A stretch of DNA of 64,000 bases from Candidatus Pacearchaeota archaeon (GCA_041656875.1 JBBACR010000001.1:325386-389385); one strand, 5' to 3'. Counted from the stretch's first letter, positions 7,341 to 52,969 are shown. Notes: generated from the letters alone by a model not told the origin. Translations and numbers: made by a program.

Positions 7341-9539
7341 TTATTTTTTTATAAATGATAATGTATTTCCGTTAACTATTGCAATATAATATCCAGCAGA
7401 TAAATTTTCAACATTAATTGATTCTTCATCTGTAATTTCTTTTTCTATTACAGAAACACCATTTGCACCTATAATTTTTACTTTAGATGTTCCTATATTT
7501 TTAATTTTAATATAATCAGTTGTAGGATTTGGATATATTGAAATTTCATTTGTAATAATACCAACGGCCGTAGTATCTCCAACCGATGTAGTATCTTCAA
7601 TTCCTGCTTGAATAATTATGATTGTTTTTGATACGTTGCCTACAGGTTTTACCTCATCTGCCGCATATACTGTGATTTTAGCAGTTCTCTTTGTTTTTGT
7701 CGTATTTGCGCTTGCGGTAAATGATATTGAGTTTTGATTGCCAACAGTAGTTACAGTTAACCATGTTTGGTCAGAATTTACTTGTATGTAACCTGCATTT
7801 GATATTGCATACAGATTTTTAAAATTCGATGAACTTGATAAGACAATTGTTGCTGTATCAATTGTTATAATAACATCAGCAGGTTCTTGGGTAACAATTA
7901 TTGAATCTTTTACATTTCCTGCCCAAACAGTAACCTTTGCATGTCGGGGTATTGACATTGGATTTGCTTGTGCAGTAAATGTAATTACAGAATTTGTGAT
8001 TGCTGCAGTTAACCATGGTTCTGATGAAATTGGATAAAGCGAAGTATTTGAAGTAACTGTTACTGTTGCAATACTGTTAGTATCTTTACCAATACTTATA
8101 GAATCTTTCAAAATTGTTATTGTGCCATTGCCTGGTTTTTGTATAATCGTTAATGTTTTAGATGCGGGAACTCCTTTAATTGAATAAAGAATATGTGCTG
8201 TAGCAGTTCGAGTGGTTACATTTGGGTTTTCTTCAATTGCTTTAAATTCAATTGTTCCATTTCCATTTGTTTGCAAATTACTTGTGGTTAACCAAGAATC
8301 ATTTGATTCAACAGTCCATGTTGCATTTGATGATACATTGAAAGATACCGTACTGTTTTTTGTGTAATCAATTGTTGCAGTCGTTGAAACAAGGTCAATA
8401 TATTCGATACCTGCAGGTTGTGTAATTGTTATGATTTGGTCAGCAATGCCGTTTCCTTTAATTGTAACTGTTGCAGTTCTGTCAATAAGTGTTGGATTTA
8501 CAGATGCAATCAAGTTAATAGTTGTTCCATTTGTTGTTAAACTTAACCATGTTTGGTCAGATGTAGCAGTCCATTGTACATTTGCATCAATTGTAACATT
8601 TGCTGTATTTACAATATTAATAGTATTTGATGTAACGGATATGTATGGACTTTCGCCTTCTTGCACAATTGTCAAAGTATCTGCTATTGTATCCGCATAA
8701 CTAGTTGAATTGGTAGTTAATTGTGTTGTTGCTATTACAATTTTTGCAGTTCTTTTTGATGTAGTATGATTTGCTGATAACGTATATGAAACTGTACCGC
8801 CATCCAATCCAGTTGAATTATTAATAGTTATCCATGGCGAATCTGATGTTGCTGTCCAATCGCCTTGTCCTGTAAATGTGTTATCATATGATGCAGAAGT
8901 ACTTGGCACTGTATCAACCGTTTTTGTCAATAATACGCCATTCATTTCAAATATGTACGTAGATGCGGGGATAGTTACCAAGTTTTTATACAATTGCAAT
9001 GAACCGAACGGAACATAATAACTGACAGTATATGTACTATACGTTAAATTTGTAGGAGGGACTTTCGAGAAAAGATAAATGAAACTCCTATTTGCTTTTG
9101 TTCCACACAACGTGAACATTGCATATGAACCGATTGACGTTACATTTTTTGGTATAGCTAACCATCTAAGCGATGTGCATTGATAAAATGCGTATTTTCC
9201 GATTGCTGTCAATGATTGCGGTAATTTAATCCAAGTAATGACAAACCGATAAAACGCACTGTCGGGGAGTGCATTATTTGCATAAATTTTAGTTCCACTG
9301 TTATATTCAACAATGTTAGCATTTGATAAATCAACTGTCTTTAATTGATTTTTCATTGTTGTCATGAACACAAAATCACGGTAATCAATAGGACCAGTTA
9401 CGATTAAATCGGTAACTGTTGTAGTAGTAAATTTCACTGACATTTCGCCAGCGGCAGTAGAGTTGTACGTTGAGTACACTTGGGCGTTTACTGCGATTGC
9501 AATAAAAAATCCCGTCAATAAAAGGAATAGTTTTTTCAT
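7341..9539 (-). CDS. secreted BspA-type leucine-rich-repeat / multi-BACON protein with T9SS C-terminal sorting domain
   Basis: Signal peptide MKKLFLLLTGFFIAIAVNAQ; LRR_5-like AIGKYAFYQCTSL..IPKNVTSIGSYAMF; five W....WL BACON-like modules; C-term IYPNPTTDYIKIK...LSAGYYIAIVNGNTLSFIKK = T9SS CTD; degenerate class A promoter upstream. Confidence 0.7.
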   Translation of the reverse strand: MKKLFLLLTGFFIAIAVNAQVYSTYNSTAAGEMSVKFTTTTVTDLIVTGPIDYRDFVFMTTMKNQLKTVDLSNANIVEYNSGTKIYANNALPDSAFYRFVITWIKLPQSLTAIGKYAFYQCTSLRWLAIPKNVTSIGSYAMFTLCGTKANRSFIYLFSKVPPTNLTYSTYTVSYYVPFGSLQLYKNLVTIPASTYIFEMNGVLLTKTVDTVPSTSASYDNTFTGQGDWTATSDSPWITINNSTGLDGGTVSYTLSANHTTSKRTAKIVIATTQLTTNSTSYADTIADTLTIVQEGESPYISVTSNTINIVNTANVTIDANVQWTATSDQTWLSLTTNGTTINLIASVNPTLIDRTATVTIKGNGIADQIITITQPAGIEYIDLVSTTATIDYTKNSTVSFNVSSNATWTVESNDSWLTTSNLQTNGNGTIEFKAIEENPNVTTRTATAHILYSIKGVPASKTLTIIQKPGNGTITILKDSISIGKDTNSIATVTVTSNTSLYPISSEPWLTAAITNSVITFTAQANPMSIPRHAKVTVWAGNVKDSIIVTQEPADVIITIDTATIVLSSSSNFKNLYAISNAGYIQVNSDQTWLTVTTVGNQNSISFTASANTTKTKRTAKITVYAADEVKPVGNVSKTIIIIQAGIEDTTSVGDTTAVGIITNEISIYPNPTTDYIKIKNIGTSKVKIIGANGVSVIEKEITDEESINVENLSAGYYIAIVNGNTLSFIKK

Positions 9540-15556: not shown

Positions 15557-15589
15557 TTTTATGAATATATAAAATAAATTATTAATATT
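15557..15589 (+). promoter_or_regulatory. class B motif heading the plus-strand RIPT-leader gene array
   Basis: TTTTATGAATATATAAAATAAATTATTAATATT then ATG. Confidence 0.45.
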
Positions 15590-30815: not shown

Positions 30816-30867
30816 ATCAATTAATTAAAATCAAATATACAACATTTATGAAGCAATAGCAATAGTT
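30816..30867 (-). promoter_or_regulatory. class A promoter element
   Basis: same consensus; followed by small membrane protein ORF. Confidence 0.55.
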
Positions 30868-32486
30868 TATGAAAATAATTTTACATAAGATGATAATGAA
30901 TCGTATGCATCTGTTAATTTGAATTCTTCAACTATTAATTTTCCATCGTATATTTTGCCGTTTATTGCATCAACTGAAATAAAATCGCCTTCTTTATAAA
31001 CTTTATTGTTAATTGTTAATGTTAATGTTTTCATATCAATTGTCATATTGCTACAGCCAACAACACAAGGTTTATTCATTTGTCTTGCAACAATTGCTGC
31101 GTGGCATGTCATACCACCTCTTGTTGTTATAACGCCATCTGATAATTTCATACCAATTAAATCAGCAGGTGATGTATCAATTCTAACTAAAATTGAGTTT
31201 TCTCCGGATTTATTAAATTTTTCAACACTTTCATTATTAAAAGCAATACGGCCAACCGCAATACCGCTTGATGCACTTAATCCTGTTGAAATATGAATAT
31301 CGTTTACTTTTAATCTTTTTGCATTAAGAAAATGCAATTGAGTTTTATCTATTCTATTCAATGCAGTATTAGGTGATATTAAACCTTCGCACGCCATATC
31401 ATATGCAATATTAACAGCGCCAAGTATATTACATTTTGCATTTCTTGTTTGTAAAATGTAAACAATTTCATTTTCTATCGTAAATTCGATATCTTGAACA
31501 TCGCCATAATGTTGCTCTAATTTATTAGCATAAGATATGAGTTTACTATATGCAATTGGCATTGATTCTTCTAATGAAATGTAGTTTTTATTTCGTTCAG
31601 TTTCATCTATAAAATTATCAGTTGCCCATTTTGCCGATTCATATTTCGATATTTTTTTAGGTGTAACAACACCTGATACGATATCTTCACCTTGTGCTTT
31701 TGTCAAATATTCTCCAGTTATCAGATTTTCACCTGTAATAGGATTTCGTGTAAATAATACACCCGTTCCTGAATTGTCATTTATATTTCCAAAGACCATT
31801 GATTGTACAACAACAGCAGTTCCTAATGAATCATCTATGCCGTATGATTTTCTGTAATAAACAGCAACATCATTATTGAAAGAATTGAATACTGCAGATA
31901 TTGAACGGAATAACTGCGTGTATACATCAATAGGAAATTCTTCACCGATTTCTTTGAAATACAACTTTTTATATTCTGCAATTGCTGTTTGCAATTCTTC
32001 TACTGTTGCGTTATTATTGCAAAAATCAAATAAATCTTCATCGATGCCAGACACATGAATTGCAAAAGTTTCGATGAATTTCAAATATAATCGTAATGGA
32101 AATATTGCATCTCCAGTTTCTTTAGCAATTACATTAACAATATCATCATTGATTCCAACATTTAAAATTGTTGTCATCATGCCAGGCATTGATTCAACAC
32201 CGCTTGAACGTATTGATAAAAGTAATGGATTAGAACTTCCGCCGAACAACTTGTTTGTTTCTGATTCTAATGTTTTTATATCATTAGTAATATGCTGTTT
32301 TAATTCAGATGTTATGTTTTTATCGTTTTTCCATTTTGCGTATGCATCAGTTGAAACAATAAAACCGTATGGCAATGAAACATTCAAACGATTCATTTCT
32401 AAAAGATTGAATCCTTTTCTACCTACTGCTGTTAATTCGGCAGTATCTGAAAAATTTGTTCTAAAAAAATACGATAGTTTATTCAT
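30867..32486 (-). CDS. PEP-utilising enzyme family protein: PpsA/PPDK N-terminal ATP-grasp plus phosphohistidine swivel domain, no PEP-binding TIM barrel (rifampin-phosphotransferase-like architecture)
   Basis: N-term VGRKGFNLLEMNRLNVSLPYGFIVSTDAY; C-term GGMTCHAAIVARQMNKPCVVG = PEP-utilisers phosphohistidine signature; start revised from TTG to ATG (MNKLSYFF). Confidence 0.6.
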   Translation of the reverse strand: MNKLSYFFRTNFSDTAELTAVGRKGFNLLEMNRLNVSLPYGFIVSTDAYAKWKNDKNITSELKQHITNDIKTLESETNKLFGGSSNPLLLSIRSSGVESMPGMMTTILNVGINDDIVNVIAKETGDAIFPLRLYLKFIETFAIHVSGIDEDLFDFCNNNATVEELQTAIAEYKKLYFKEIGEEFPIDVYTQLFRSISAVFNSFNNDVAVYYRKSYGIDDSLGTAVVVQSMVFGNINDNSGTGVLFTRNPITGENLITGEYLTKAQGEDIVSGVVTPKKISKYESAKWATDNFIDETERNKNYISLEESMPIAYSKLISYANKLEQHYGDVQDIEFTIENEIVYILQTRNAKCNILGAVNIAYDMACEGLISPNTALNRIDKTQLHFLNAKRLKVNDIHISTGLSASSGIAVGRIAFNNESVEKFNKSGENSILVRIDTSPADLIGMKLSDGVITTRGGMTCHAAIVARQMNKPCVVGCSNMTIDMKTLTLTINNKVYKEGDFISVDAINGKIYDGKLIVEEFKLTDAYDSLSSYVKLFS

Positions 32487-32489
32487 AAT

Positions 32490-32542
32490 CAATTTTTAAA
32501 ATCAAATATACAACATTTAGAAATCATTAGCAATGGTTTCAT
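32490..32542 (-). promoter_or_regulatory. class A promoter element
   Basis: ttttaaaatcaaatatacaacatttagaaatcattagcaatggtt. Confidence 0.5.
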
Positions 32543-37072: not shown

Positions 37073-37279
37073 ATGACACTTTACACACCTGCGCAAGTTG
37101 CAAAATTATTCGGCGTATCAACTAACACAATCCGAAACTACGAATCTCAAGGTATTATTCCTAAAAGATTGCCAAGCGGTTATAGGAAATACACAATTCA
37201 AAACATCAAGGAACTTGTGGACCTTTTAGGAATTGACTCCGATGAAATTAAAAAAATTCTAACAGATGAACAAAACTAA
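37073..37279 (+). CDS. MerR-family HTH transcriptional regulator
   Basis: LYTPAQVAKLFGVSTNTIRNYESQGII...GYRKYT. Confidence 0.6.
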   Translation: MTLYTPAQVAKLFGVSTNTIRNYESQGIIPKRLPSGYRKYTIQNIKELVDLLGIDSDEIKKILTDEQN

Positions 37280-38444
37280 ATACTTTTACGTTTACAAACT
37301 TGTACATAAGGAAACTGACGAATTTTACATAGGTTCTAGAGTTTGCAATTGTAAACCTGAAAAAGATATAAACTATCTTGGTTCAATGAAAACATGGAAA
37401 ACCGATAAATCGAAACTTTTAAAATCAATTCTTAAAACTGATTTTACTGCGACTGAGGATATGATTGAATTTGAAAGTAAACTTATATCAGAAAACATTA
37501 AAAACCCACTAAATCGAAATTACCACATTCCTAATTTAGGTTTTAGAACACACGGCAAAACTGCAGTTAAAGATAAAGATGGCAATGGGTTTCTTGTTGA
37601 CGTTAACGACGAAAGAATACTAACAGGCGAACTTCATCATGCGTGTAAAGGAAAATTTACGGCGCAAGACAGAGATGGAAATACTTTTCAAATTGCAATA
37701 AACGATAATATGTTTTTATCAGGTAACGCTTTCGGTTTAGCGAAAGGGATGCTGCCTGTTAAAGATAAAGATGGCAATACGTTTCAGGTTAATAAAAACG
37801 ATCCTAGATTTATTTCAGGCAATGTAACATCAATTTTTAAAGGAAAGGTTGTTGTAATTGATAAAAATAATAATACACTACAAGTAGATACTAACGATCC
37901 TAAATATATTTCTGGGGAATATGTGCATAACACAACAGGAAAGACAACTGTTAAAGATGAAAATGGAAATACGTTCCAAATTAACACAAACGATGAAAGA
38001 TATGTATCAGGAGAACTTCATCATATGAATATTGGTAAAGTTCCTGTTAAAGACAAAGAAGGCAATAGCTTTCAAGTTGCTAAAAATGATCCTCGACTTT
38101 TATCTGGTGAATTACAGCATGTTACAAAAGGTGCCAACATCGGTAAATGTATCGTTAAAGATGCAAATGGCAAAATATATCGTGTAGATCGTACAGATCC
38201 TCGGTTCATATCAGGCGAACTTGTGCATATTGCAGCAGGAAGAATTACTGTAAAGGACAAAGAGGGTAATACATTCCAAGTTGATAAAAACGATCCTAGA
38301 TATTTATCAGGCGAATTAATCAGTATTAACGCGGGTATGGCGTGGGGAACTGGAAAAGATAATACGCCTATCAGAACAAAAATCGATGATCCAAGATTTA
38401 AAACTGGAGAATTACAGCGAGGTCGAAAATACAGAATACGTTAG
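37266..38444 (+). CDS. GIY-YIG homing endonuclease with nine ~29-aa tandem DNA-binding-type repeats
   Basis: FYVYKLVHKETDEFYIGS (GIY-YIG); repeats VKDKDGNxFQVxxNDPRxxSGELxHxxxG x9. Confidence 0.6.
   Translation: MNKTKYFYVYKLVHKETDEFYIGSRVCNCKPEKDINYLGSMKTWKTDKSKLLKSILKTDFTATEDMIEFESKLISENIKNPLNRNYHIPNLGFRTHGKTAVKDKDGNGFLVDVNDERILTGELHHACKGKFTAQDRDGNTFQIAINDNMFLSGNAFGLAKGMLPVKDKDGNTFQVNKNDPRFISGNVTSIFKGKVVVIDKNNNTLQVDTNDPKYISGEYVHNTTGKTTVKDENGNTFQINTNDERYVSGELHHMNIGKVPVKDKEGNSFQVAKNDPRLLSGELQHVTKGANIGKCIVKDANGKIYRVDRTDPRFISGELVHIAAGRITVKDKEGNTFQVDKNDPRYLSGELISINAGMAWGTGKDNTPIRTKIDDPRFKTGELQRGRKYRIR
37560..38350 (+). repeat. nine tandem ~87-bp coding repeats (29-aa modules) inside GIY-YIG gene
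   Basis: VKDKDGNTFQVNKNDPRFISGELxHxxKG-type units. Confidence 0.6.
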
Positions 38445-38968
38445 TCACGTTTATTGTAAACCGTAAACTCTTCTTCAGGAACGAATACCAATTCGTTTTT
38501 AGCACGAGTACATGCGACGTAGTCTATGTTGCGTTCTTGCTGTATGTCCATATCCTTTTTCGCCCATGGTGCTTGTAGGATTTTTGGTTCAATGATAAAT
38601 ACTTTGTGCGATTCTAAACCTTTAACTTTATGAATTGTTGAACAACAAATTCCTGCTTTATTATCAGCAAAGATTGCAGCAATCAATGATGTTAATTCAG
38701 AAACCTTACTTAAACGTTTTGAATCTGTAAGAATTTCCATTACTTGAATTTTTTCTTCGAAATTTCTGTACGATGTTGTGTTTGTTGCCTCTTCAGGTGT
38801 CATTCCTAAGCCCATCAATTTAACTCTAATTTTTGAAAGGTCACCGTAAAGTGTTGAAATTGCACCTTTAATAGTTGGGCGTTTTGTTTTCTCCAACATT
38901 GTGATTAAGTTTTTTCCTATATCAGAACCTTTAACGTATGCTTTTTTATGTTGAGCAATAAATTTCAT
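38441..38968 (-). pseudogene. isolated UvrD/PcrA-type helicase C-terminal fragment (motifs V-VI only)
   Basis: STIHKVKGLESHKVFII and YVACTRAKNELVF correspond to helicase C-terminal motifs; no N-terminal ATPase part in window; flanked by two homing-endonuclease genes. Confidence 0.4.
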
Positions 38969-39850
38969 ACAAAGGGTAACAAGTGGACGAGTTGTACGGC
39001 AAAGAAAATGAAAGCACCGATAATTAAAATTTGTCCTTTTTGCTTAATTGAATTTATTGCAAAACGAACAAAGTCAGTTTTTTGTTGTAGATCGCATGCG
39101 CAAACATATGCAGCAAACAAACCCGAACGTATTGCATTAAGTTCTTTAAATGCAAAAGCTAGATGGACGGATGCTACATTCAGAAATCATATGTTAGAAG
39201 AAATTAAAAATTTTGCATCATCTGCGGAATTCAAAGAAAAACAGTCGGTTGTTCAAAAGGAAAGACAATCTCATCAATCGGTAAAAGCGGAAATTAGCAA
39301 ACGTTCCAAAGAACAATGGGCAAGACAAGAAACGAAGGAAAAACAATCTGCATCGCAAAAAATTGCGCAAAATAAGTCAGACGTTAAAGAAAATAAGTCA
39401 CACAAACTTAAGCAAATAACAAATGAATGGCACTGGCGTAAAAGACAATCCCAAAATATGTTAAATTTATGGAAAAATGCAGATTATGCAGAACGTGTAT
39501 TTGCTGGAAATAAAGCAGCAATGTATAAACGTTACGATTTTATATTGCCATCTGGCACAATAGTAAAGTTGCAAGGATATGAACCTCGCGCATTGCGTGA
39601 ACTGTTAGAAACTTATCATGAATCAGATATAGTAATCGGCGTTAAAGAAATGAATTCCGTCATAGGAACAATTTCGTATTTGTTTGAAAGTAAAGAAAGA
39701 ACATATTATCCAGATTTTTATATAAAGTCAACTAATACAATAATAGAAGTTAAAAGCACGTGGACGTTTGAATCGGAAAAGGAAAAAAATATAGCAAAAG
39801 AACAAAGTTGTTTATCAAAAGGATTTGCTTTTAAATTTATTATTTATTAA
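38948..39850 (+). CDS. putative homing endonuclease (Zn ribbon plus PD-(D/E)xK), paralog of 18858..19625
   Basis: CPFCLIEF..CCRSH; C-term YYPDFYIKSTNTIIEVKSTWTF. Confidence 0.5.
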   Translation: MLSNKFHTKGNKWTSCTAKKMKAPIIKICPFCLIEFIAKRTKSVFCCRSHAQTYAANKPERIALSSLNAKARWTDATFRNHMLEEIKNFASSAEFKEKQSVVQKERQSHQSVKAEISKRSKEQWARQETKEKQSASQKIAQNKSDVKENKSHKLKQITNEWHWRKRQSQNMLNLWKNADYAERVFAGNKAAMYKRYDFILPSGTIVKLQGYEPRALRELLETYHESDIVIGVKEMNSVIGTISYLFESKERTYYPDFYIKSTNTIIEVKSTWTFESEKEKNIAKEQSCLSKGFAFKFIIY

Positions 39851-40535
39851 ATCGTGCAAATGCCTTCTCTGTTATAAATATTTTTCTCGACTTTTTAAAT
39901 TCTAACAAATTCTTAGACGAAGTATAGCTCATTGCACTTGACAGATAATGTTTAAAATTTTCAACCCAACCGTCAATTGTGTATTCAACAGGATTCATTC
40001 TTGTAATTCCTTCCGACGTTTTTATTACGTCAGCGCCTAAAGATTTTTGTGCACCTTTAGTACTCATTCCTCTAAATTTTTTGAAAAATTGAGTTCCGTA
40101 ATTAAATGCAATTTCTGTTTCCTCTGCATATTGATTCACCTTTTCACCTGGTTCAGTCCAGCCATCGTTCTTTTTATTTTGTTTGTATGTATCGCCACAA
40201 CTTTCCAATGCTTTATTGAAAATTGAACCAATCATACAAAAATCAGCACCTAACGCAAGTGCTTTAAGTATATCTGAGTAACTTTTAAATCCACCATCTG
40301 CAATTATTTTTGCAGGTTTTTCTAATCTTAAAGACATTTCATAGCATTCAGAAATAAGTGATGCCATTGGATAACCTATTCCTGTTTGAACAGTTGTAAG
40401 ACACCCGCTGTTATGAACAATAATTCCGTTTATATTATATGAATGATCTGTTTCTATACATAAATCATGTACTGTACCTTCGTAATATTCAACACTTTTT
40501 TTTATTTCTATTAAATTAAAACTTCGTTTTCCCAT
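39840..40535 (-). CDS. guaC: split-intein C-fragment (IntC, 42 aa) fused to GMP reductase C-extein
   Basis: MGKRSFNLIEIKKSVEYYEGTVHDLCIETDHSYNINGIIVHN (intein blocks F and G) then SGCLTTVQTGIGYPMASLISEC...ADGG (GuaC catalytic-Cys loop and downstream motifs). Confidence 0.6.
   Translation of the reverse strand: MGKRSFNLIEIKKSVEYYEGTVHDLCIETDHSYNINGIIVHNSGCLTTVQTGIGYPMASLISECYEMSLRLEKPAKIIADGGFKSYSDILKALALGADFCMIGSIFNKALESCGDTYKQNKKNDGWTEPGEKVNQYAEETEIAFNYGTQFFKKFRGMSTKGAQKSLGADVIKTSEGITRMNPVEYTIDGWVENFKHYLSSAMSYTSSKNLLEFKKSRKIFITEKAFARFNK
40410..40535 (-). other. IntC segment of split intein
   Basis: blocks F/G, terminal HN followed by +1 Ser. Confidence 0.55.
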
Positions 40536-41623
40536 GATTTTATTCTTTTAAATTCGCATTTTAGATATGTTCGTATTTCTTCTTCTCGTATTTTATCTTT
40601 CTCTCGTAAGTTCCCATTTCTATCAAAATGATATGGCTCATCATATTCATATACAATATTATTTATTTCATCATAGCCATCAACAAAATAACCTAAATCT
40701 TTAATATGATATTCGCCGCCGTTCAATGCATGACATATTTGCGTATTTGTCTTTTTTGCAAGTTTATCAAAATACGTGCAGCCATTTACATTAAAATTGG
40801 GTTGATGAATACAACCGTTTGGAAAATACATTGCAATACGTTTAAGCATTGTAACTCTAAGATTTCTTCTATGTTCTGTTGAAAATTCGCGGCCTTTTAA
40901 TGATTCTGATATTTTATCTAAAATGTCATTCCATTTATCTGTTTCTTTTAACTTTCGTATCGCGTTTTTCATATTTTGTTTGTATGCTTCAAACTTTATA
41001 TCTGCCACTTCTTTCCCATATTTTTCTTCCCACACAGAATAAACAGATTTACCAAACATTGGATTATTATCGCATGAACTCGCAAACTGTTGTCTCACTT
41101 TGTACGCTTCAAACTTTATATCTGCCACTTCTTTCCCATATTTTTCTTCCCATACAGAATAAACAGATTTACCAAACATTGGATTATTTTCGCCATCGTA
41201 TTTTCCTTTCATCCCATCAGACCTATGTTTTTTCATTTCTGGAGAATGCCGTTTATTATAAAACGGATTATTTTCGCCGATAAAATTTTCTTTGATATGA
41301 TTATCCCACATCGAATTGCCTGTTTCTTCACCATACTTTCCAATCCATATTGTCTTCAAAGATTTTTCAAACATTGGATTATTTTCGCCTTTAATTCTGC
41401 ATTTTCTACATAGAAAGATTTTATCCAATTTTGGCCGTGATCTTTGAACAGTTTCATGTCCGCAATCGCTGCATATAATTTTATTGAATTTCATATTTGC
41501 TTCCTTTGCACGCATTTCATTGCCATCAATAAACTTAAATACAAAACAATTTTTATTTTTTAATTCATACGCAATAACTTGAACGTCATCAATATAAAAT
41601 GTCGGTATTATTTTTGTTTCCAT
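40511..41623 (-). CDS. free-standing homing endonuclease between intein halves: Zn finger, NUMOD3-like repeats, C-terminal Vsr/DUF559-like PD-(D/E)xK
   Basis: Own ATG after 60-nt AT-rich spacer; CSDCGHE..CRKC; GENNPMFGKS x3; C-term VDGYDEINNIVYEYDEPYHF; frames differ from both intein halves. Confidence 0.6.
   Translation of the reverse strand: METKIIPTFYIDDVQVIAYELKNKNCFVFKFIDGNEMRAKEANMKFNKIICSDCGHETVQRSRPKLDKIFLCRKCRIKGENNPMFEKSLKTIWIGKYGEETGNSMWDNHIKENFIGENNPFYNKRHSPEMKKHRSDGMKGKYDGENNPMFGKSVYSVWEEKYGKEVADIKFEAYKVRQQFASSCDNNPMFGKSVYSVWEEKYGKEVADIKFEAYKQNMKNAIRKLKETDKWNDILDKISESLKGREFSTEHRRNLRVTMLKRIAMYFPNGCIHQPNFNVNGCTYFDKLAKKTNTQICHALNGGEYHIKDLGYFVDGYDEINNIVYEYDEPYHFDRNGNLREKDKIREEEIRTYLKCEFKRIKSWENEVLI
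40981..41198. repeat. ~97-bp near-perfect tandem duplication (period 120 bp) inside intein-associated HEG
   Basis: 40981-41078 vs 41101-41198 identical except 2-3 positions; encodes duplicated NNPMFGKSVYSVWEEKYGKEVADIKFEAYK. Confidence 0.7.
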
Positions 41624-41684
41624 TTCTTGTTTATTTTATATATAAAGAATATGAAATGCAAATTATACAAGAATTGGAGTTGGG

Positions 41685-42500
41685 CTAATATTGAATCAAT
41701 AAATGTGTGTTTTCATCCAAATCAACAGCAGATATCCATTTTGCATATGCTGATATGTTATCATCATCGACTATATCTTTATACTTTTTGTCAATAACGT
41801 AGTATTCATGATTCATTGTTGAACCTTCACCATTAATAAATATTATGTCTTCTTCTTTATTATATGTATATGTTTCTATTACTTTTTGCCATATGTTTGT
41901 GTGTGTTAAGACATAATCACCAACTTTAACATCTTCTATATTTTTCAATCCTGTTTTTGTCAAAACTTTTGTTCCTCTGATGAAACAGCCGCCTCCAATA
42001 CCGCAACGAATTGCATCGGCGCCAGCAATTGATAAATCCCAATACGTTTCTGGATTAGCAATATTACCTACCATAAGATACAATTTTGTTCCGTATTTTC
42101 TTTTTGCTGCACCGATAGCGGATGACAAACTTGCCATGTGTCCATTAGCAATATCAATAAGTACATAATACGTTCTATCATTACCTAAGATTAATTTAGA
42201 TAATGTTGAATCTTTTAAAAACAAATCAGTAAATTGCGTTAAACTGTATGATTTAAAAATTTTTGCAAAATCGCTGTAATCTTGAGACCTTGCATCTTGT
42301 ACTCTTGGAAATACTGCATATATGTTATTATTCAAAAAATATTCATAGTTATCATTATTAATAACAGTATCCATTGGTGCTGTCATAATTGGTAACATGC
42401 CATCATCATTAAACAAATTGCATTCGCTTCTTGATGAAATTTCCGTCGATACGGATGGGACGATAAGAATATCGTCAAAATCAAATTTTCTTTCTATCAT
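41685..42500 (-). CDS. guaC: GMP reductase N-extein fused to split-intein N-fragment (IntN, ~99 aa)
   Basis: MIERKFDFDDILIVP, PIMTAPMDTV, VLIDIANGH, MVGNIA, CGIGGG then CFIRGTKVLT...GSTMNHEYYV (intein blocks A,B) to stop; start revised to Met-17 of table ORF. Confidence 0.6.
   Translation of the reverse strand: MIERKFDFDDILIVPSVSTEISSRSECNLFNDDGMLPIMTAPMDTVINNDNYEYFLNNNIYAVFPRVQDARSQDYSDFAKIFKSYSLTQFTDLFLKDSTLSKLILGNDRTYYVLIDIANGHMASLSSAIGAAKRKYGTKLYLMVGNIANPETYWDLSIAGADAIRCGIGGGCFIRGTKVLTKTGLKNIEDVKVGDYVLTHTNIWQKVIETYTYNKEEDIIFINGEGSTMNHEYYVIDKKYKDIVDDDNISAYAKWISAVDLDENTHLLIQY
41688..41987 (-). other. IntN segment of split intein
   Basis: Cys1 codon at 41985-41987; blocks A and B; ends at stop. 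Confidence 0.55.
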
Positions 42501-42735
42501 CTTTTCCTTTTTTAAGTGCTTTTTCGATTCCGTCGCATATTGCAACAAAATCTGGGTTTAACGATTGTCTTAAATATACGCCTGTGCCTTGTAATGAAGT
42601 TTCGGCATAACACTCAACAAGTTCGATAATTCTATTCTGAATTTCTTTTTTATTGTGTTTCCAATCAGCGCCTTTTGTTTCTTTTGACATTTCAATCATT
42701 TTCATGATTGCTTTTAGTTCTTTATCAAAATCCAT
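42481..42735 (-). CDS. hypothetical protein
   Basis: ORF track 84 aa. Confidence 0.4.
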   Translation of the reverse strand: MDFDKELKAIMKMIEMSKETKGADWKHNKKEIQNRIIELVECYAETSLQGTGVYLRQSLNPDFVAICDGIEKALKKGKDDRKKI

Positions 42736-42738
42736 AAA

Positions 42739-43686
42739 TTAATGTTTTAGTTTACAATTATCAAAATGAAATAATTTAAAATTACTTTTTCCAGATTTTC
42801 CACAATGCGGGCATTCGTACACTGGTCTATATTGGTTTTTTGCAATTTCCCGTTTCTTTTTACGAAATGCTTCACGTTCTTCTTCTGTCATCTTTGCAAA
42901 ATATGCTTTACTAGTTTCGCGTAATTTTTCACGCCGTTTCTGTTTATCATCTTCGGACTTTGCATCAATTGTTTGTTTGAATTTTGCTGTGCGTTCTTTA
43001 AGTTTATCTTCTGACATATTCAATACACGTTCGCTAGCATCTTTGCGGATTTTTTCTTTATGTTCATCAGTTAAATTATTAAACGCATTCCGTAAATTCT
43101 CTTTTTTCAATTCTCTTTCATCGTCTGTTAAATTACGCCATTGTTGTCTTACATTTTCTTTGCAATTTTCTTTCTGTTCGTTTGTCATGTTAGACATTCC
43201 TTGCTTTACCGCATTTGCAATATTTTGTCTTTCATCTTGCGACAATTTTGACCATCTTTTCTGCATTCCAAGAGAATGCTTTTGCTTTTGTTCTTCCGCA
43301 ATAATATCAGATTTATAAATCTCGGCGTATGTTTTTCCTTTTAATGCATCAGATAATTTTGTTCGTGTTTCCGCAGTAGGACTATAATCCAGTATCAATT
43401 TACCGCCGCCAGTGATTAAATTCATACATAATGGCTCATTTATTAAAGTGATTGTTACAATTTCTTTTTCTCTTAAAACAACAGATGCTCTATCTTTGCA
43501 ATATTCTAAAATTTCAGTTTTAAAATTGTTACGTCCATACTTTTGTATTGAACGCCACAAATATAATCCCGAACCAATGTAACCATCATTCAAATCAAAA
43601 GTAGAATGCATACCGATATAAAACTTATTATTTATAAGATTTGTTGTTTTATAAATATAATGATACGTGTGAGGTTTCCTTGCCAT
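42739..43686 (-). CDS. GIY-YIG homing endonuclease with NUMOD-like repeats and C-terminal Zn finger
   Basis: YHYIYKTTNLINNKFYIGMHS...YIGSG; repeated ...NxTDxExxK modules; CPHCGKSGK..C..H. Confidence 0.6.
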   Translation of the reverse strand: MARKPHTYHYIYKTTNLINNKFYIGMHSTFDLNDGYIGSGLYLWRSIQKYGRNNFKTEILEYCKDRASVVLREKEIVTITLINEPLCMNLITGGGKLILDYSPTAETRTKLSDALKGKTYAEIYKSDIIAEEQKQKHSLGMQKRWSKLSQDERQNIANAVKQGMSNMTNEQKENCKENVRQQWRNLTDDERELKKENLRNAFNNLTDEHKEKIRKDASERVLNMSEDKLKERTAKFKQTIDAKSEDDKQKRREKLRETSKAYFAKMTEEEREAFRKKKREIAKNQYRPVYECPHCGKSGKSNFKLFHFDNCKLKH

Positions 43687-45956: not shown

Positions 45957-47105
45957 TTAGTTTTCTACTATATGCAGTTCATGCGCTTCAATATTCAACG
46001 GCACTTCTAATTTTTTGCGCATTTTATCCATCACGCATAACGGAACTTGTTCTTTTTCTGTTCTGCTTAAATTTTGTTTTACACAATCAGCATAAGGTGT
46101 TGCAATAAAAATTATTTTTACATACGCCTTATACGAAGTGAACAATGAAATAAGTCCTTCTCTCATTTGTCTTGTTATGTTAGTTGCATTCCAAACAAAA
46201 TCAATTCCTTTTGCCATATATTCTTTGGCAGTTTTCTTTGCTTCTTGAATAACACGACCTTGTTCATCAGTCGGCTTTATTTTTAATCTTCTTCGTATTT
46301 CGTCTAAAGATATCACAGGTATTCCTGACATATGTTTCGATATGTAATAATCTTTACCCGAACCAGGCAAACCTACCATCATGCATACGGTTGATTTTGT
46401 ATCATCAAACGGACAATCTGAATGATGATGTGTTCTTTCAACAAGATACTTATATTTTGCAATTCCTGTTCCGAATTCGTATGCACCGTCAATAAGATCC
46501 AAATCAAAAGCTAATAATAAAAAGTAATCAATTGCTTCAAGTCTTTTATCAATGTCTGATGCAATTCTTCCTTTAAAATCACTTTTTGTCATGTAATAAA
46601 GATTGTCCATTCTGCAATCTTGTGACATTTTAATAATTGAACGTTCTTGTTCTTCTCTTGTTTTATCAATAAGCCATGTAGGTTTTCCATGATATAGAAT
46701 AAGATTGCAAATTTCGATACGATCCAAAATAGGCATCTTATCACCATTAATTATTGATACTTTAAGGTTCTCTAATAATTCCCATGCAATTTTTGCGCCT
46801 GTTGCTTCGTGTCCATGTGCTCTAATTTTGCCATCCTCTAATTTTGAGACTATCGGTTTTGCAATATCATGAAGTAACAATGCATAATTTATAATTGTTA
46901 TGTCATGCGCGCATAACGATAATTCTTCATCAATTCCGTCAAGTTCATTACAAATTTTTTCAAATTCGTCAAGAACCATTTTTGTATGTGTTAGCACATC
47001 GCCTTCACCGTGCCAGTCTGGATTTTGTTCGCATAATGACATTGCATTTAAGTATGGATGCAATTCTTTCCATTGCGGAACAACATAATCATAAAATTTA
47101 CTCAT
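45957..47105 (-). CDS. HD-Pnk: N-terminal HD phosphoesterase plus C-terminal P-loop 5'-OH polynucleotide kinase (end-healing enzyme)
   Basis: NPDWHGEGDVLTHT, LLLHDIAKP, HGHE (HD motifs); CMMVGLPGSGKDYY Walker A; architecture as described for Runella HD-Pnk. Confidence 0.65.
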   Translation of the reverse strand: MSKFYDYVVPQWKELHPYLNAMSLCEQNPDWHGEGDVLTHTKMVLDEFEKICNELDGIDEELSLCAHDITIINYALLLHDIAKPIVSKLEDGKIRAHGHEATGAKIAWELLENLKVSIINGDKMPILDRIEICNLILYHGKPTWLIDKTREEQERSIIKMSQDCRMDNLYYMTKSDFKGRIASDIDKRLEAIDYFLLLAFDLDLIDGAYEFGTGIAKYKYLVERTHHHSDCPFDDTKSTVCMMVGLPGSGKDYYISKHMSGIPVISLDEIRRRLKIKPTDEQGRVIQEAKKTAKEYMAKGIDFVWNATNITRQMREGLISLFTSYKAYVKIIFIATPYADCVKQNLSRTEKEQVPLCVMDKMRKKLEVPLNIEAHELHIVEN

Positions 47106-47108
47106 TTC

Positions 47109-48302
47109 TTATAATTTTAATAGTCCTTGTTCAATATGTCCCGAATATAATTCTCTAAGTTTATCGTGTCCGATATTCAATATTTCAGATTCAAGTTTCG
47201 CTCTCCTCCAATTTTTCGACCAATGTTCATCGGTTTTCACATGTTTTGCTCTTACATATTTGTAAACAGAATTGTAAAACATGTCATTTGGAAATTCTTC
47301 TTGTATTCTAGCAACCACGCCTTCTTTAGGTGATTCAAATATCATATCGTTCGATAAATGAGATGTGTGTGTCATCAAATCATTTATTATGTCTTCCATT
47401 GTTTGCGGCTGTTGAACACGGAATTTATTTTCAACTCGCCAGTTTGATGAATCAACTCTGAAAAGAATCGGAACAGTTACAAAATCAAACATTTTTGCCC
47501 AATATTCTGTTTCCTCCCACGATAAGAAAACATCATGTTTCATATTTCTTACACCAAATACGTAAAAGTGTTCCTGCAATCCAGAATAAATAATAGAATG
47601 CTCACCATACATATTTTCGCCACAAATTTCAAGGTCGAAATCTTTTAAATCATTTTTGATTGAATCCCATTTGGGTTTAAGCCATTGCGCCCATGGGTTT
47701 TTTGTTGGTGCTGTTCGTGATCTTGCAAATAAACCGTATTGTGAAATACTTGTGTTTTCGCCATCAAGTTTTTCTGTTATGATAACAGGTCTTTTGTAAA
47801 GAATATTTGTATTTTTTGCAATCCTATCATCTGATGTTGTACCAGGTGAAAATGGAAAATGATAAGTTCGAGGATACTTATCAACAATAGGATCATACGG
47901 TTTATCGAAATCTTTAAGACGAGATTGTATGATCTTTTGAACATTTGCATTGCGGAAGATATATCCTTTCAATCTTCGTCCATCTTTTAAAATTGGATTT
48001 CCCCATTTATCATAATCCATAACAAATTCGTTAAGTGATAAATCGGAAGGATATAATATGTTTTTTATTTTTGCGTGCGATCTTAAAAATTCGCAAGATA
48101 TTTCAGTTTCCTCTGCCAACATATGATGTTCAAAACACAATGAAACACCGTTATCTAAATAATAACCGCCGTCATCGAATAACGAACGGTCGATTATATG
48201 ATGTGCATCAACTGCAGGTTTTCCGCATATAACGCATTTATGATTATCTCGTTTGAATACAGATTCTTTGAATTCTGTTCTATTTAACAATGTCTGATTC
48301 AT
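47109..48302 (-). CDS. HNH endonuclease domain fused to ATP-dependent RNA ligase (covalent nucleotidyltransferase) domain
   Basis: CVICGK..DAHHIIDRSLF...NGVSLCFEHH (HNH); ITEKLDGENTSI (motif I KxDGxN), ICGENMY (III), KEGVVARI (IV), VRAKHVK (V). Confidence 0.6.
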   Translation of the reverse strand: MNQTLLNRTEFKESVFKRDNHKCVICGKPAVDAHHIIDRSLFDDGGYYLDNGVSLCFEHHMLAEETEISCEFLRSHAKIKNILYPSDLSLNEFVMDYDKWGNPILKDGRRLKGYIFRNANVQKIIQSRLKDFDKPYDPIVDKYPRTYHFPFSPGTTSDDRIAKNTNILYKRPVIITEKLDGENTSISQYGLFARSRTAPTKNPWAQWLKPKWDSIKNDLKDFDLEICGENMYGEHSIIYSGLQEHFYVFGVRNMKHDVFLSWEETEYWAKMFDFVTVPILFRVDSSNWRVENKFRVQQPQTMEDIINDLMTHTSHLSNDMIFESPKEGVVARIQEEFPNDMFYNSVYKYVRAKHVKTDEHWSKNWRRAKLESEILNIGHDKLRELYSGHIEQGLLKL

Positions 48303-52366: not shown

Positions 52367-52939
52367 TTACTTTTTCTTTTTATTGCATTCGTATAAATTT
52401 GATGTAATTTGTGGTGGCAATTGCTCAAATTTCATATCAGCATATTTTTCACAATCATCAGGATCTTCGCACGCGCCAGATACTGCTTCACATCTATCAT
52501 CAAAACTCATTTTATCCCATGTTTGTTTTGTAATAAGAACTTGTTTGCCTTCATTTGTTTTGATTTCATCATACAGTTCTTTCAACTTCTTACCGCCAAA
52601 TTTGCTTATAAGATTTTTAAATTCGTCTTTGAATCTTTTTTCAAATTCCGCAAAAGTATCGCATTCATCAGCTAATGCATAAACGTCAGAAAGATCTGAT
52701 TCGTTTACAAAACTTTCATTTGTTTCGCTTTGAACTCTGTTATACAACTCGTGCAATTTCACACCTTTAAAATTACGAACAAATTGTTTAAAATCTACGT
52801 TAAATCTTTTGTCGAATTCTTCAAATGTATCACATTCTTTTGCTAACGATTCTATATCAGATAGTATGTCAGATATTTCTTTTTCATTAACTTTTGATTC
52901 GTTGATGTATTCATCGAGTGTAGGTATTCTTCTTTCCAT
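52367..52939 (-). CDS. RIPT-leader family protein with internal duplicated ~45-aa module
   Basis: MERRIPTLDEYINE leader; ECDTFEEFDKRF... repeated as ECDTFAEFEKRF...; class B motif upstream. Confidence 0.55.
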   Translation of the reverse strand: MERRIPTLDEYINESKVNEKEISDILSDIESLAKECDTFEEFDKRFNVDFKQFVRNFKGVKLHELYNRVQSETNESFVNESDLSDVYALADECDTFAEFEKRFKDEFKNLISKFGGKKLKELYDEIKTNEGKQVLITKQTWDKMSFDDRCEAVSGACEDPDDCEKYADMKFEQLPPQITSNLYECNKKKK

Positions 52940-52948
52940 TATATGTAC

Positions 52949-52969
52949 TTTATTTTATATATTCCAATT
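52949..52969 (-). promoter_or_regulatory. class B motif
   Basis: gene-sense TTGGAATATATAAAATAAAGTAC. Confidence 0.4.

Follow-up and report, generated by a model that had tools for sequence, protein, structure and literature searches.

A fractured GMP-reductase-like gene with a putative split intein and a free-standing endonuclease gene on a huge-phage contig

How can the gene of an enzyme be kept when it is broken off within the codons of the catalytic loop and a second gene occupies the gap? This question is raised by a locus in a 64,000-nucleotide stretch of DNA (hereafter called the window; GCA_041656875.1 JBBACR010000001.1:325386-389385, all positions counted from its first letter), which has been deposited under the name Candidatus Pacearchaeota archaeon. 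Three consecutive open reading frames (ORFs), all on the minus strand, encode the N-terminal half of an enzyme of the IMPDH/GMPR family, a putative homing endonuclease and the C-terminal half of the enzyme. A preliminary description had read this locus as a fractured gene, in which the halves of a split intein surround a free-standing endonuclease gene, and all of its structural claims were reproduced here. The locus is very probably an IMPDH-1-type fractured gene of a huge phage, whose two halves are reunited by protein trans-splicing and whose middle gene serves homing.

The interrupted gene and its intein halves

The three genes and their parts are listed in Table 1. When delimited mechanically, the ORF of the N-half gene (41685..42548) opens at a TTG codon. 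The ATG at 42500, which has AAGGAAAAG upstream, is the likelier start, and the resulting protein of 271 amino acids has the same sequence as P0001, a database protein, and as the proteins called on independent contigs (P and L numbers are our handles for related proteins and loci). The ORF had been recognised before, with 42548 taken as its start and with the strand left unstated. The N-half protein begins with MIERKFDFDD..., reaches ...RCGIGGG and then runs, at a Cys codon (41985-41987), into the N-terminal intein half (IntN), CFIRGTKVLT...THLLIQY, which is terminated by a TAG codon (41685-41687). The endonuclease ORF has its own ATG at 41623 and is not fused to the intein. The earlier account had placed it behind a short spacer; this spacer is indeed present and measures 61 nucleotides, and at the other end the final 25 nucleotides of the endonuclease gene overlap the start of the C-half gene (ATG 40535). 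The 42 residues of the C-terminal intein half (IntC) end with ...DHSYNINGIIVHN and are followed by the C-extein, SGCLTTVQTGIGYPMASLISEC..., in which Ser+1 is encoded by 40409-40407. The Cys of the catalytic loop is C-extein residue +3 (codon 40403-40401), in agreement with the proposal that the insertion lies close before the catalytic Cys. Pfam detected the IMPDH/GMPR domain (PF00478) on both halves (E = 2.5e-12 and 8.4e-22), Hint_2 on the tail of the N-half, Intein_splicing on the head of the C-half and NUMOD3 on the middle ORF. Moreover, the exact C-half protein occurs on at least 8 contigs and the endonuclease protein is identical to P0129 from a public library.

Comparison with uninterrupted alleles defined the limits of the element. 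In a tblastx alignment with the uninterrupted allele L004, the match stops exactly at 41988 and resumes exactly at 40409. Thus, the insert comprises exactly 40410..41987. The exteins joined in silico by removing these positions yield a protein of 360 amino acids (40.2 kDa), of which residues 2-360 align with the uninterrupted metagenomic protein P0102 (361 amino acids) at 71% identity and without a gap at the junction (GIGGGSGCLTT in the window, GIGGGSACLTS in P0102). The junction predicted to arise by splicing is ...CGIGGG-SGCLTTVQTGIGYPMASLISECYEMSLR. In the uninterrupted allele L004, the corresponding DNA reads GGTGGTGGG/TCAGCGTGT (also given as GGGATAGGTGGTGGG/TCAGCGTGTTTAACT) and is a candidate target of the endonuclease.

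The preliminary description had named the host enzyme GuaC. The loop GIGGGSGCLTT aligns with GIGGGSVCST and GIGPGKVCIT of solved IMPDH/GMPR structures, and the best solved relatives are the CBS-less 'IMPDH' 3r2g and the GMP reductase 1ypf. Contiguous homologues are found in huge phages (51% identity in LR756500 and about 35% in Lak phages) and also in the crAss-like phage cr108_1. The best NCBIfam matches are GMP reductase models, among which PRK05096 aligns over the full length, whereas IMPDH models align only from residue ~112 onwards, that is, with the C-terminal two thirds of the protein. Pfam did not detect a CBS domain in the host protein. No NCBIfam equivalog cut-off was reached, the top score being 134.6 bits against a cut-off of 344 for the GMP reductase model PRK05458. 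Because the GMP reductase models fit best but remain far below their equivalog cut-offs, we place the host protein in the IMPDH/GMPR family as GMP-reductase-like, which also holds for its size and layout, and treat 'GuaC' as a family-level name. The same host protein was called 'IMPDH' in the paper that introduced the fractured genes in 2009 (PMC2677866).

The intein halves were compared with those of IMPDH-1. IntN and the N fragment of IMPDH-1 share 49% identity, gapless over 99 of 100 residues (BLASTP, E = 2e-35), and IntC is 50% identical to the C fragment (BLASTP, E = 5e-13). Given these E values, the homology goes beyond chance. The window intein is broken at the same point as IMPDH-1 and both share the insertion site, which reads GGG/SGC in the window and GGG/SIC at the native junction of IMPDH-1, as reported together with the fragment sequences by Pinto et al. 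2020 (PMC7090010). All splicing residues are kept, namely Cys1, the T-M-N-H of block B (TxxH), the terminal His-Asn and Ser+1, and C1, T57 and H60 are invariant in the IntN alignment. C1, T and H are likewise conserved in an alignment of 25 sequences, in which IntN is carried by 23 of the 24 sampled relatives. The intein blocks that had been placed at the Cys codon and at the head of the C-half are borne out by the Hint_2 and Intein_splicing matches and by the homology to IMPDH-1. Likewise, the lengths of 100 and 42 amino acids fit the earlier estimate of ~99 and 42, which had been likened to natural trans-splicing split inteins, and the proposed alignment with known split inteins led to the IMPDH-1 halves with their common split point and insertion site.

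The fold was addressed with an AlphaFold2 model of fused IntN and IntC, which was searched with Foldseek. The model has a pLDDT of 84.6, and every one of the 47 matches at E <= 1e-3 has the HINT fold; they comprise inteins (among them split gp41-1, AceL NrdHF and Npu DnaE), bacterial intein-like domains and hedgehog autoprocessing domains. The best matches, which include gp41-1 and AceL NrdHF, have E values of 1e-7 to 1e-6 and TM values of about 0.7. IntN and IntC are therefore predicted to form a HINT fold together. The IMPDH-1 pair trans-splices efficiently in vivo and in vitro (PMC11168065; PMC7090010), and from this homologous pair, for which the reaction is proven, we infer that the present allele trans-splices as well.

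Table 1 Features of the fractured locus in the window
Feature	Positions	Strand	Basis
N-half gene, 271 amino acids (171 of the N-extein and 100 of IntN, TAG at the end)	41685..42500	-	ORF/sequence; Pfam IMPDH and Hint_2
N-extein, 171 amino acids, N-terminal part of the IMPDH/GMPR-type barrel, ending ...RCGIGGG	41988..42500	-	tblastx against L004; structure alignment
IntN, 100 amino acids: Cys1, block B T-M-N-H, C-terminal break as in IMPDH-1	41688..41987	-	Homology to IMPDH-1 N
Spacer, 61 nucleotides, from the IntN stop to the endonuclease start; hairpin ~41619..41678; box ATATATAAAATA at 41632..41643	41624..41684	-	
Free-standing homing-endonuclease gene, 370 amino acids, frame unlike either half	40511..41623	-	ORF; NUMOD3 Pfam match
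Zinc ribbon CxxC-x17-CxxC, endonuclease residues 51-75	41399..41473	-	Invariant Cys; weak treble-clef/CxxC model matches
NUMOD3-type repeat DNA-binding region of the endonuclease	40979..41392	-	NUMOD3 E = 2.3e-11; direct repeat
Nuclease domain of the endonuclease, residues ~272-370, HA-NGGE...DGYD...E-DE--H...D...R	40514..40810	-	Predicted Vsr-like PD-(D/E)xK fold
C-half gene, 231 amino acids (42 of IntC with its own Met and 189 of the C-extein)	39840..40535	-	ORF; Pfam IMPDH and Intein_splicing
IntC, 42 amino acids: block F VHDLCIETDHSYNI, block G IIVHN	40410..40535	-	Homology to IMPDH-1 C; motifs shared with sister loci
C-extein, 189 amino acids, starting Ser+1-Gly-Cys	39843..40409	-	tblastx against L004
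Whole inserted element, 1578 bp (IntN, spacer, endonuclease gene, IntC)	40410..41987	-	Missing from the uninterrupted allele P0102/L004

The endonuclease gene and its leader

The middle gene encodes a modular protein. Its zinc-ribbon residues C51, C54, C72 and C75 are conserved without exception among five related proteins, and NUMOD3-type repeats span residues ~78-215 (Pfam E = 1.2e-10 for the full protein; E = 2.3e-11, in three stretches, for the N-terminal part alone). Hence, the zinc finger and the NUMOD3-like repeats of the preliminary description are both present. At the DNA level, a direct repeat with a period of 120 nucleotides is evident (40979-41073 and 41099-41193, 97% identical), with a third copy of 60% identity at 41294-41388. 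The duplicated NUMOD3-like unit (NNPMFGKSVYSVWEEKYGKEVADIKFEAYK) is also doubled in the proteins of L008, L012 and L016, and in L008 and the window the copies look closer to each other within a locus than between the loci, which suggests repeated duplication or gene conversion. Homologues of the endonuclease occur at the same position in L016, L017 and L069.

The nuclease domain is more divergent. A phmmer search of the endonuclease against the PDB sequences gave only a chance-level match of the zinc ribbon, and Pfam returned nothing relevant for the isolated nuclease domain at E values of up to 10. In PHROGs, the endonuclease matched only a family of unknown function, over the repeat region, and nothing over the nuclease domain. 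A profile built from 30 nuclease-domain homologues did not match 3R3P or Vsr among the PDB sequences, whereas the canonical EDxHD domains of sister loci (IELDGEYWH...ND) do match 3R3P (E = 2.6e-6). Membership of the domain in the EDxHD family by sequence was rejected on account of this profile search and of an hhalign probability of 6%. At 50% identity, the family of the domain itself falls into at least 4472 clusters. Its conserved positions are H, N, E, D, E, H, D and R, and all residues that are invariant in this family are present in the window protein. Marginal DUF559 matches were obtained for 8 of the 30 homologues and one family member is named 'very-short-patch-repair endonuclease' by one source. 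A Vsr/DUF559-like (I-Bth0305I-like) fold is therefore supported as a prediction, and the order of acidic and His residues (VDGYD ... E-Y-D-E-x-x-H ... D) is comparable to that of the EDxHD motif; the spacing differs and the F/Y-W pair is missing. As to the Vsr/DUF559-type PD-(D/E)xK domain proposed earlier, the predicted fold and the marginal DUF559 matches speak for it, and a profile similarity to Vsr or 3R3P was not recovered.

The comparison of sister loci indicates how this domain came to its place. The N-terminal ~230 residues are shared with the L008 and L012 proteins, which bear a canonical EDxHD domain, and the C-terminal nuclease domain is shared with the L016 and L017 proteins. Unlike the window, most sister loci carry an EDxHD-type nuclease. 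The zinc-ribbon and NUMOD3 module is thus combined with an EDxHD nuclease in L008 and L012 and with the HA-NGGE/DGYD nuclease in the window, L016 and L017, at an identical insertion site, and the sequences point to an exchange of nuclease domains at a single homing site, the DNA-binding module being common to these proteins. Tentatively, and with about as much doubt as confidence, the HA-NGGE/DGYD/E-DE--H/D/R domain may be regarded as a large lineage of homing endonucleases outside Pfam, which would be distinct from canonical EDxHD enzymes, share only the Vsr/RAP-type fold with them and have been swapped onto the zinc-ribbon and NUMOD3 module. If this is true, the locus is a natural experiment in nuclease-domain exchange with target specificity kept.

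The leader of the endonuclease gene can be folded such that CCA-UUCUUGU pairs with ACAAGAA-UGG, by which the AUG and the bases upstream of it are buried (-11.2 kcal/mol, z = -1.68). Hairpins that bury the AUG were found in 7 of 11 sister loci, their sequences being different. The loop holds the 12-mer ATATATAAAATA, of which the window contains three copies against 0.25 expected (15565-15576 on the plus strand; 41632-41643 and 52951-52962 on the minus strand). Two of the copies lie directly upstream of gene starts, those of the endonuclease gene and of ORF 52367..52939, and ATATATAAAATA is regarded as a candidate for a promoter box of the phage. An exact TATAAATA is found at the corresponding place in L017, and hairpins together with TATAAATA late-promoter boxes before endonuclease genes have been reported (Dassa et al. 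2009, PMC2677866). The hairpin probably restrains the expression of the endonuclease, the evidence for regulation being weak.

Relatives, the proposed life cycle and its alternatives

The split form of the gene is common. A search of the N-half against a collection of 5.8 billion proteins gave 1738 relatives, of which the best 120 were examined and 24 were sampled. Nearly all of the best 120 are 253-326 amino acids long at 93-100% query cover. Of the 24 sampled relatives, 23 are broken at the same point and have kept C1, T and H, and the remaining one is the uninterrupted P0102. Among 80 related IMG/VR loci, about 20 have the intein and about 59 are uninterrupted. Among the intein-bearing sister loci, the three-gene layout of the window recurs, the middle ORF then encoding 332-362 amino acids. 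In L013, L014 and L022 the split intein halves are kept and the middle gene is lost, leaving a gap of ~35-230 bp with stop codons. Moreover, a contiguous LAGLIDADG-type intein of 372 amino acids, without a stop codon, occupies the same GGG/S site in L025/L026 (5484..6599), and at least two types of intein thus use this site. The same split-intein family (IntC ...VYDLEVEDNHSYNVNGIIVHN) was also found at a second site of the host gene, in L020 (5514..7320), where it lies 54 residues downstream of the usual site (KALALG / intein / SDYVMIGS) and where the middle gene is, by motif only, a DUF7487-like endonuclease. Since a megablast search with the 3-kb region as the query found no match in 50,697 phage records, the locus has no close relative among these cultured or deposited phages. 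As a side observation, an IntN-like match lies in a different gene of L034 (6603..6908), with an uninterrupted copy of the host gene ~550 bp upstream of it, and a related intein may reside in another host protein there.

Taken together, the following life cycle can be proposed. A mobile cassette of 1578 bp sits in the catalytic-loop codons of the GMP-reductase-like gene, and the two polypeptides would associate via IntN and IntC and fold into one HINT domain. Trans-splicing would then ligate GIGGG to SGCLTT and give an active enzyme of ~40 kDa. Because splicing would restore the enzyme, the insertion would cost the phage little. The middle gene product would recognise DNA by its zinc ribbon and NUMOD3 repeats and cut it by the Vsr-fold nuclease. 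By cutting intein-less alleles in co-infecting relatives, it would allow repair to copy the whole cassette into them. Translation of the endonuclease could be gated by the hairpin at its start codon, with the late-promoter-like box in the loop.

Four alternatives were weighed against this life cycle. The one that survives best, although we consider it unlikely, concerns the middle gene, which may no longer home because it is inactive or decaying, or may have another role such as cutting the genomes of competing phages at exchange boundaries. The loss of the middle gene from L013, L014 and L022, which keep the split intein, indicates that a cassette, once fixed, can do without homing activity. 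It also fits this explanation that four endonuclease-like genes lie within a 6.5-kb part of the window (37.2-43.7 kb), that the nuclease domain is not of the canonical EDxHD type and that phage nuclease genes have reportedly been linked to recombination boundaries (PMC10448857). However, the ORF is of full length, the family-invariant nuclease residues, the zinc-ribbon Cys residues and the NUMOD3 repeats are kept, and the gene has exactly the position of the homing endonucleases in the sister loci.

Quite improbable is a non-covalent reassembly of the halves, in which the intein fragments would act as affinity domains only, as in NrdA/MobE of phage Aeh1. Assembly without splicing has been reported for a phage gene that is split by a free-standing endonuclease (PMC3045599), and the window IntC has lost the positive net charge of the IMPDH-1 IntC. 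Mere association would not need Cys1, TxxH, His-Asn and Ser+1, which are conserved here and across the family. Furthermore, an unspliced HINT domain of 142 residues would sit in the catalytic loop, two residues away from the active-site Cys. We consider it highly improbable that the halves are the dead remnants of a gene destroyed by the insertion of the endonuclease, with no functional enzyme left. Auxiliary metabolic genes of phages are often dispensable, and the intact form is the norm with ~59 of the 80 related viral loci being uninterrupted. Yet both halves are intact ORFs, the exteins are 71% identical to the intact allele without a frameshift, and the homologous IMPDH-1 pair splices efficiently. 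The explanation was rejected because the split form and every splicing residue are conserved, as seen in the nearly uniform length of the best 120 relatives and in the shared break point of 23 of the 24 sampled ones.

Finally, although the element length is divisible by 3 and a contiguous LAGLIDADG intein exists at the same site in L025/L026, it is hardly conceivable that the locus is one contiguous intein with an embedded endonuclease whose stop codon and frame changes stem from faulty sequencing or assembly, an explanation that was rejected because the window is 99.97-100% identical, over 2.7-6.8 kb and with zero indels, to an ENA contig of 379 kb and to Logan contigs of other runs, because the stop position, the separate Met and the separate endonuclease frame recur in diverged sister loci, and because the endonuclease has its own start after a non-coding spacer. 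The sole substitution within the element across the independent assemblies lies in the endonuclease gene, at 41224, and the check for frameshifts that had been suggested beforehand thus came out in favour of the split structure.

Several points weigh against the proposed trans-splicing and homing. Splicing, enzyme activity and DNA cleavage are all predictions at this locus. IntC has a net charge of -2 as compared with +3 in the IMPDH-1 IntC, and the electrostatic complementarity of the N and C fragments that is known for IMPDH-1 is therefore weaker here. The substrate may be either GMP or IMP. Regarding the endonuclease, the putative catalytic residues were recognised by their pattern only. 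Neither I-Bth0305I nor the group of EDxHD domains from the sister loci is significantly similar in sequence to the nuclease domain, and the comparison of its profile with these EDxHD domains gave the low hhalign probability mentioned above. Moreover, the hairpin exceeds shuffled sequence in stability by a modest margin only, and two sister loci are devoid of it. With these points taken into account, a fractured gene of the IMPDH-1 type with splicing halves and a homing middle gene is still by far the most plausible reading of the locus.

Phage surroundings and comparison with known systems

The genome around the locus is that of a huge phage, with contigs of 379-425 kb and signals of a Bacteroidota-type host. 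These signals consist of a neighbouring protein with BACON and Por_Secre_tail domains and of top helicase matches in Bacteroides phages. In its NCBI record, P0001 bears the name 'MAG: IMP dehydrogenase [Candidatus Pacearchaeota archaeon]'. The assignment to an archaeal bin is probably mistaken because the surroundings are phage-like, as judged from the 379-425 kb contigs, homing endonucleases, an RNA ligase and the BACON-domain protein. Further genes of the window are a BACON/LRR protein of 732 amino acids with a T9SS sorting tail (7341..9539, minus strand), a PPDK-like PEP-utilising enzyme (30867..32492, minus strand) and an HD/AAA_33 kinase-like protein adjoining the RNA ligase (45957..48302, minus strand).

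Close to the fractured gene, an ORF of 300 amino acids encodes a DUF7487/TnsA-like nuclease (38948..39850, plus strand; Pfam E = 3.9e-29) and shares 11 nucleotides with the 3' end of the C-half gene. By eye, its C-terminal motif PDIFLK...IIEVKSEWT resembles PDFYIK...IIEVKSTWT of the L020 middle gene. GIY-YIG-type endonuclease-like genes are located at 37266..38444 (plus strand; a YVY...YIG N-terminus followed by about ten repeats of 35 residues) and at 42739..43686 (minus strand; match to phrog_314, 4.7e-36). The orphan C-terminal third of a UvrD-type helicase is encoded at 38441..38968 (minus strand, with the match reaching 39004) and aligns with residues 316-490 of a 499-amino-acid protein of the Bacteroides phage DAC19. 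The N-terminal 315 residues were not detected in the 64-kb window, neither by tblastn with the full-length homologue of a Bacteroides phage nor by Pfam on 20 larger ORFs. Since an endonuclease-like gene of the opposite strand adjoins the fragment on each side, the helicase may be a second gene that was broken by mobile nucleases, in this case without an intein.

The closest precedents are the three fractured IMPDH loci that were described from ocean and lake (GOS) metagenomes and that consist of split inteins with an intervening endonuclease gene (Dassa et al. 2009, PMC2677866). The 'fractured genes' to which the preliminary description had referred are thus documented for the very same host family. 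IMPDH-1, IMPDH-2 and IMPDH-3 share with the window the host enzyme family, the GGG / S-x-C site, the split point, halves of ~100 and ~40 amino acids, the free-standing NUMOD3 endonuclease gene between them and, as predicted for the window, a hairpin with a late-promoter-like box before this gene. The Vsr-like endonucleases of IMPDH-1 and IMPDH-2 bear tandem NUMOD3 motifs (PMC2677866). In contrast, about half of the intein residues differ between IMPDH-1 and the window, and the window IntC is net negative. The window endonuclease, compared with the published ones by their description, is larger (370 amino acids), has a zinc ribbon and a duplicated NUMOD3 unit, and its nuclease domain matches Vsr/I-Bth0305I at the level of the fold only. 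Moreover, the genomic context is known for the window, namely a phage contig of ~380-425 kb with Bacteroidota-type signals.

The fractured genes gp41-1, gp41-8, NrdJ-1 and NrdA-2 (PMC2677866) agree with the window in the three-part architecture and in the life cycle inferred for them; they interrupt other host genes, and the similarity of their inteins to that of the window is marginal (E = 0.058 for gp41-1). I-Bth0305I, the prototype of the EDxHD (Vsr-like) enzymes (PMC3239194, PDB 3R3P), is intron-encoded and, unlike the window endonuclease, carries NUMOD2 instead of NUMOD3. Canonical EDxHD members read E-L-D-G-E-Y-W-H, whereas the window protein has E-Y-D-E-P-Y-H without the aromatic pair before the His. 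The nrdA/mobE locus of Aeromonas phage Aeh1 (PMC3045599) resembles the window in that a phage gene of nucleotide metabolism is divided into two ORFs by a free-standing endonuclease gene, the translation of which is reportedly restrained by a hairpin in Aeh1 and probably so in the window. In Aeh1, however, reassembly is reported to be non-covalent and without an intein. The cyanobacterial DnaE split intein (Ssp/Npu) is likewise a natural trans-splicing intein, which rebuilds an essential enzyme, and the fused window model resembles Npu DnaE; its halves are encoded far apart in a cellular host and no endonuclease gene lies between them.

A literature search on huge phages with split inteins, and on IMPDH combined with a free-standing endonuclease after 2010, found nothing relevant. 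The 'fractured IMPDH' of 2009, which was known from metagenomes only, has now been placed in a defined huge-phage genome, and the arrangement is widespread and polymorphic, with forms among the sampled relatives that lack the intein, carry the endonuclease, have lost it or contain a contiguous LAGLIDADG intein. The window and its relatives also represent many natural variants (~40-59% identity) of the fast and orthogonal IMPDH-1 split intein, a tool of protein engineering, and may be mined for new orthogonal pairs, and the occurrence of two nuclease domains on one DNA-binding module is of some interest for modular nuclease design. The current understanding of inteins and homing is unchanged by the locus. 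It can be stated that we are dealing with a new, ~50% diverged allele of the published IMPDH fractured gene and not with a new kind of system, the type of the nuclease domain being the sole departure from the published pattern.

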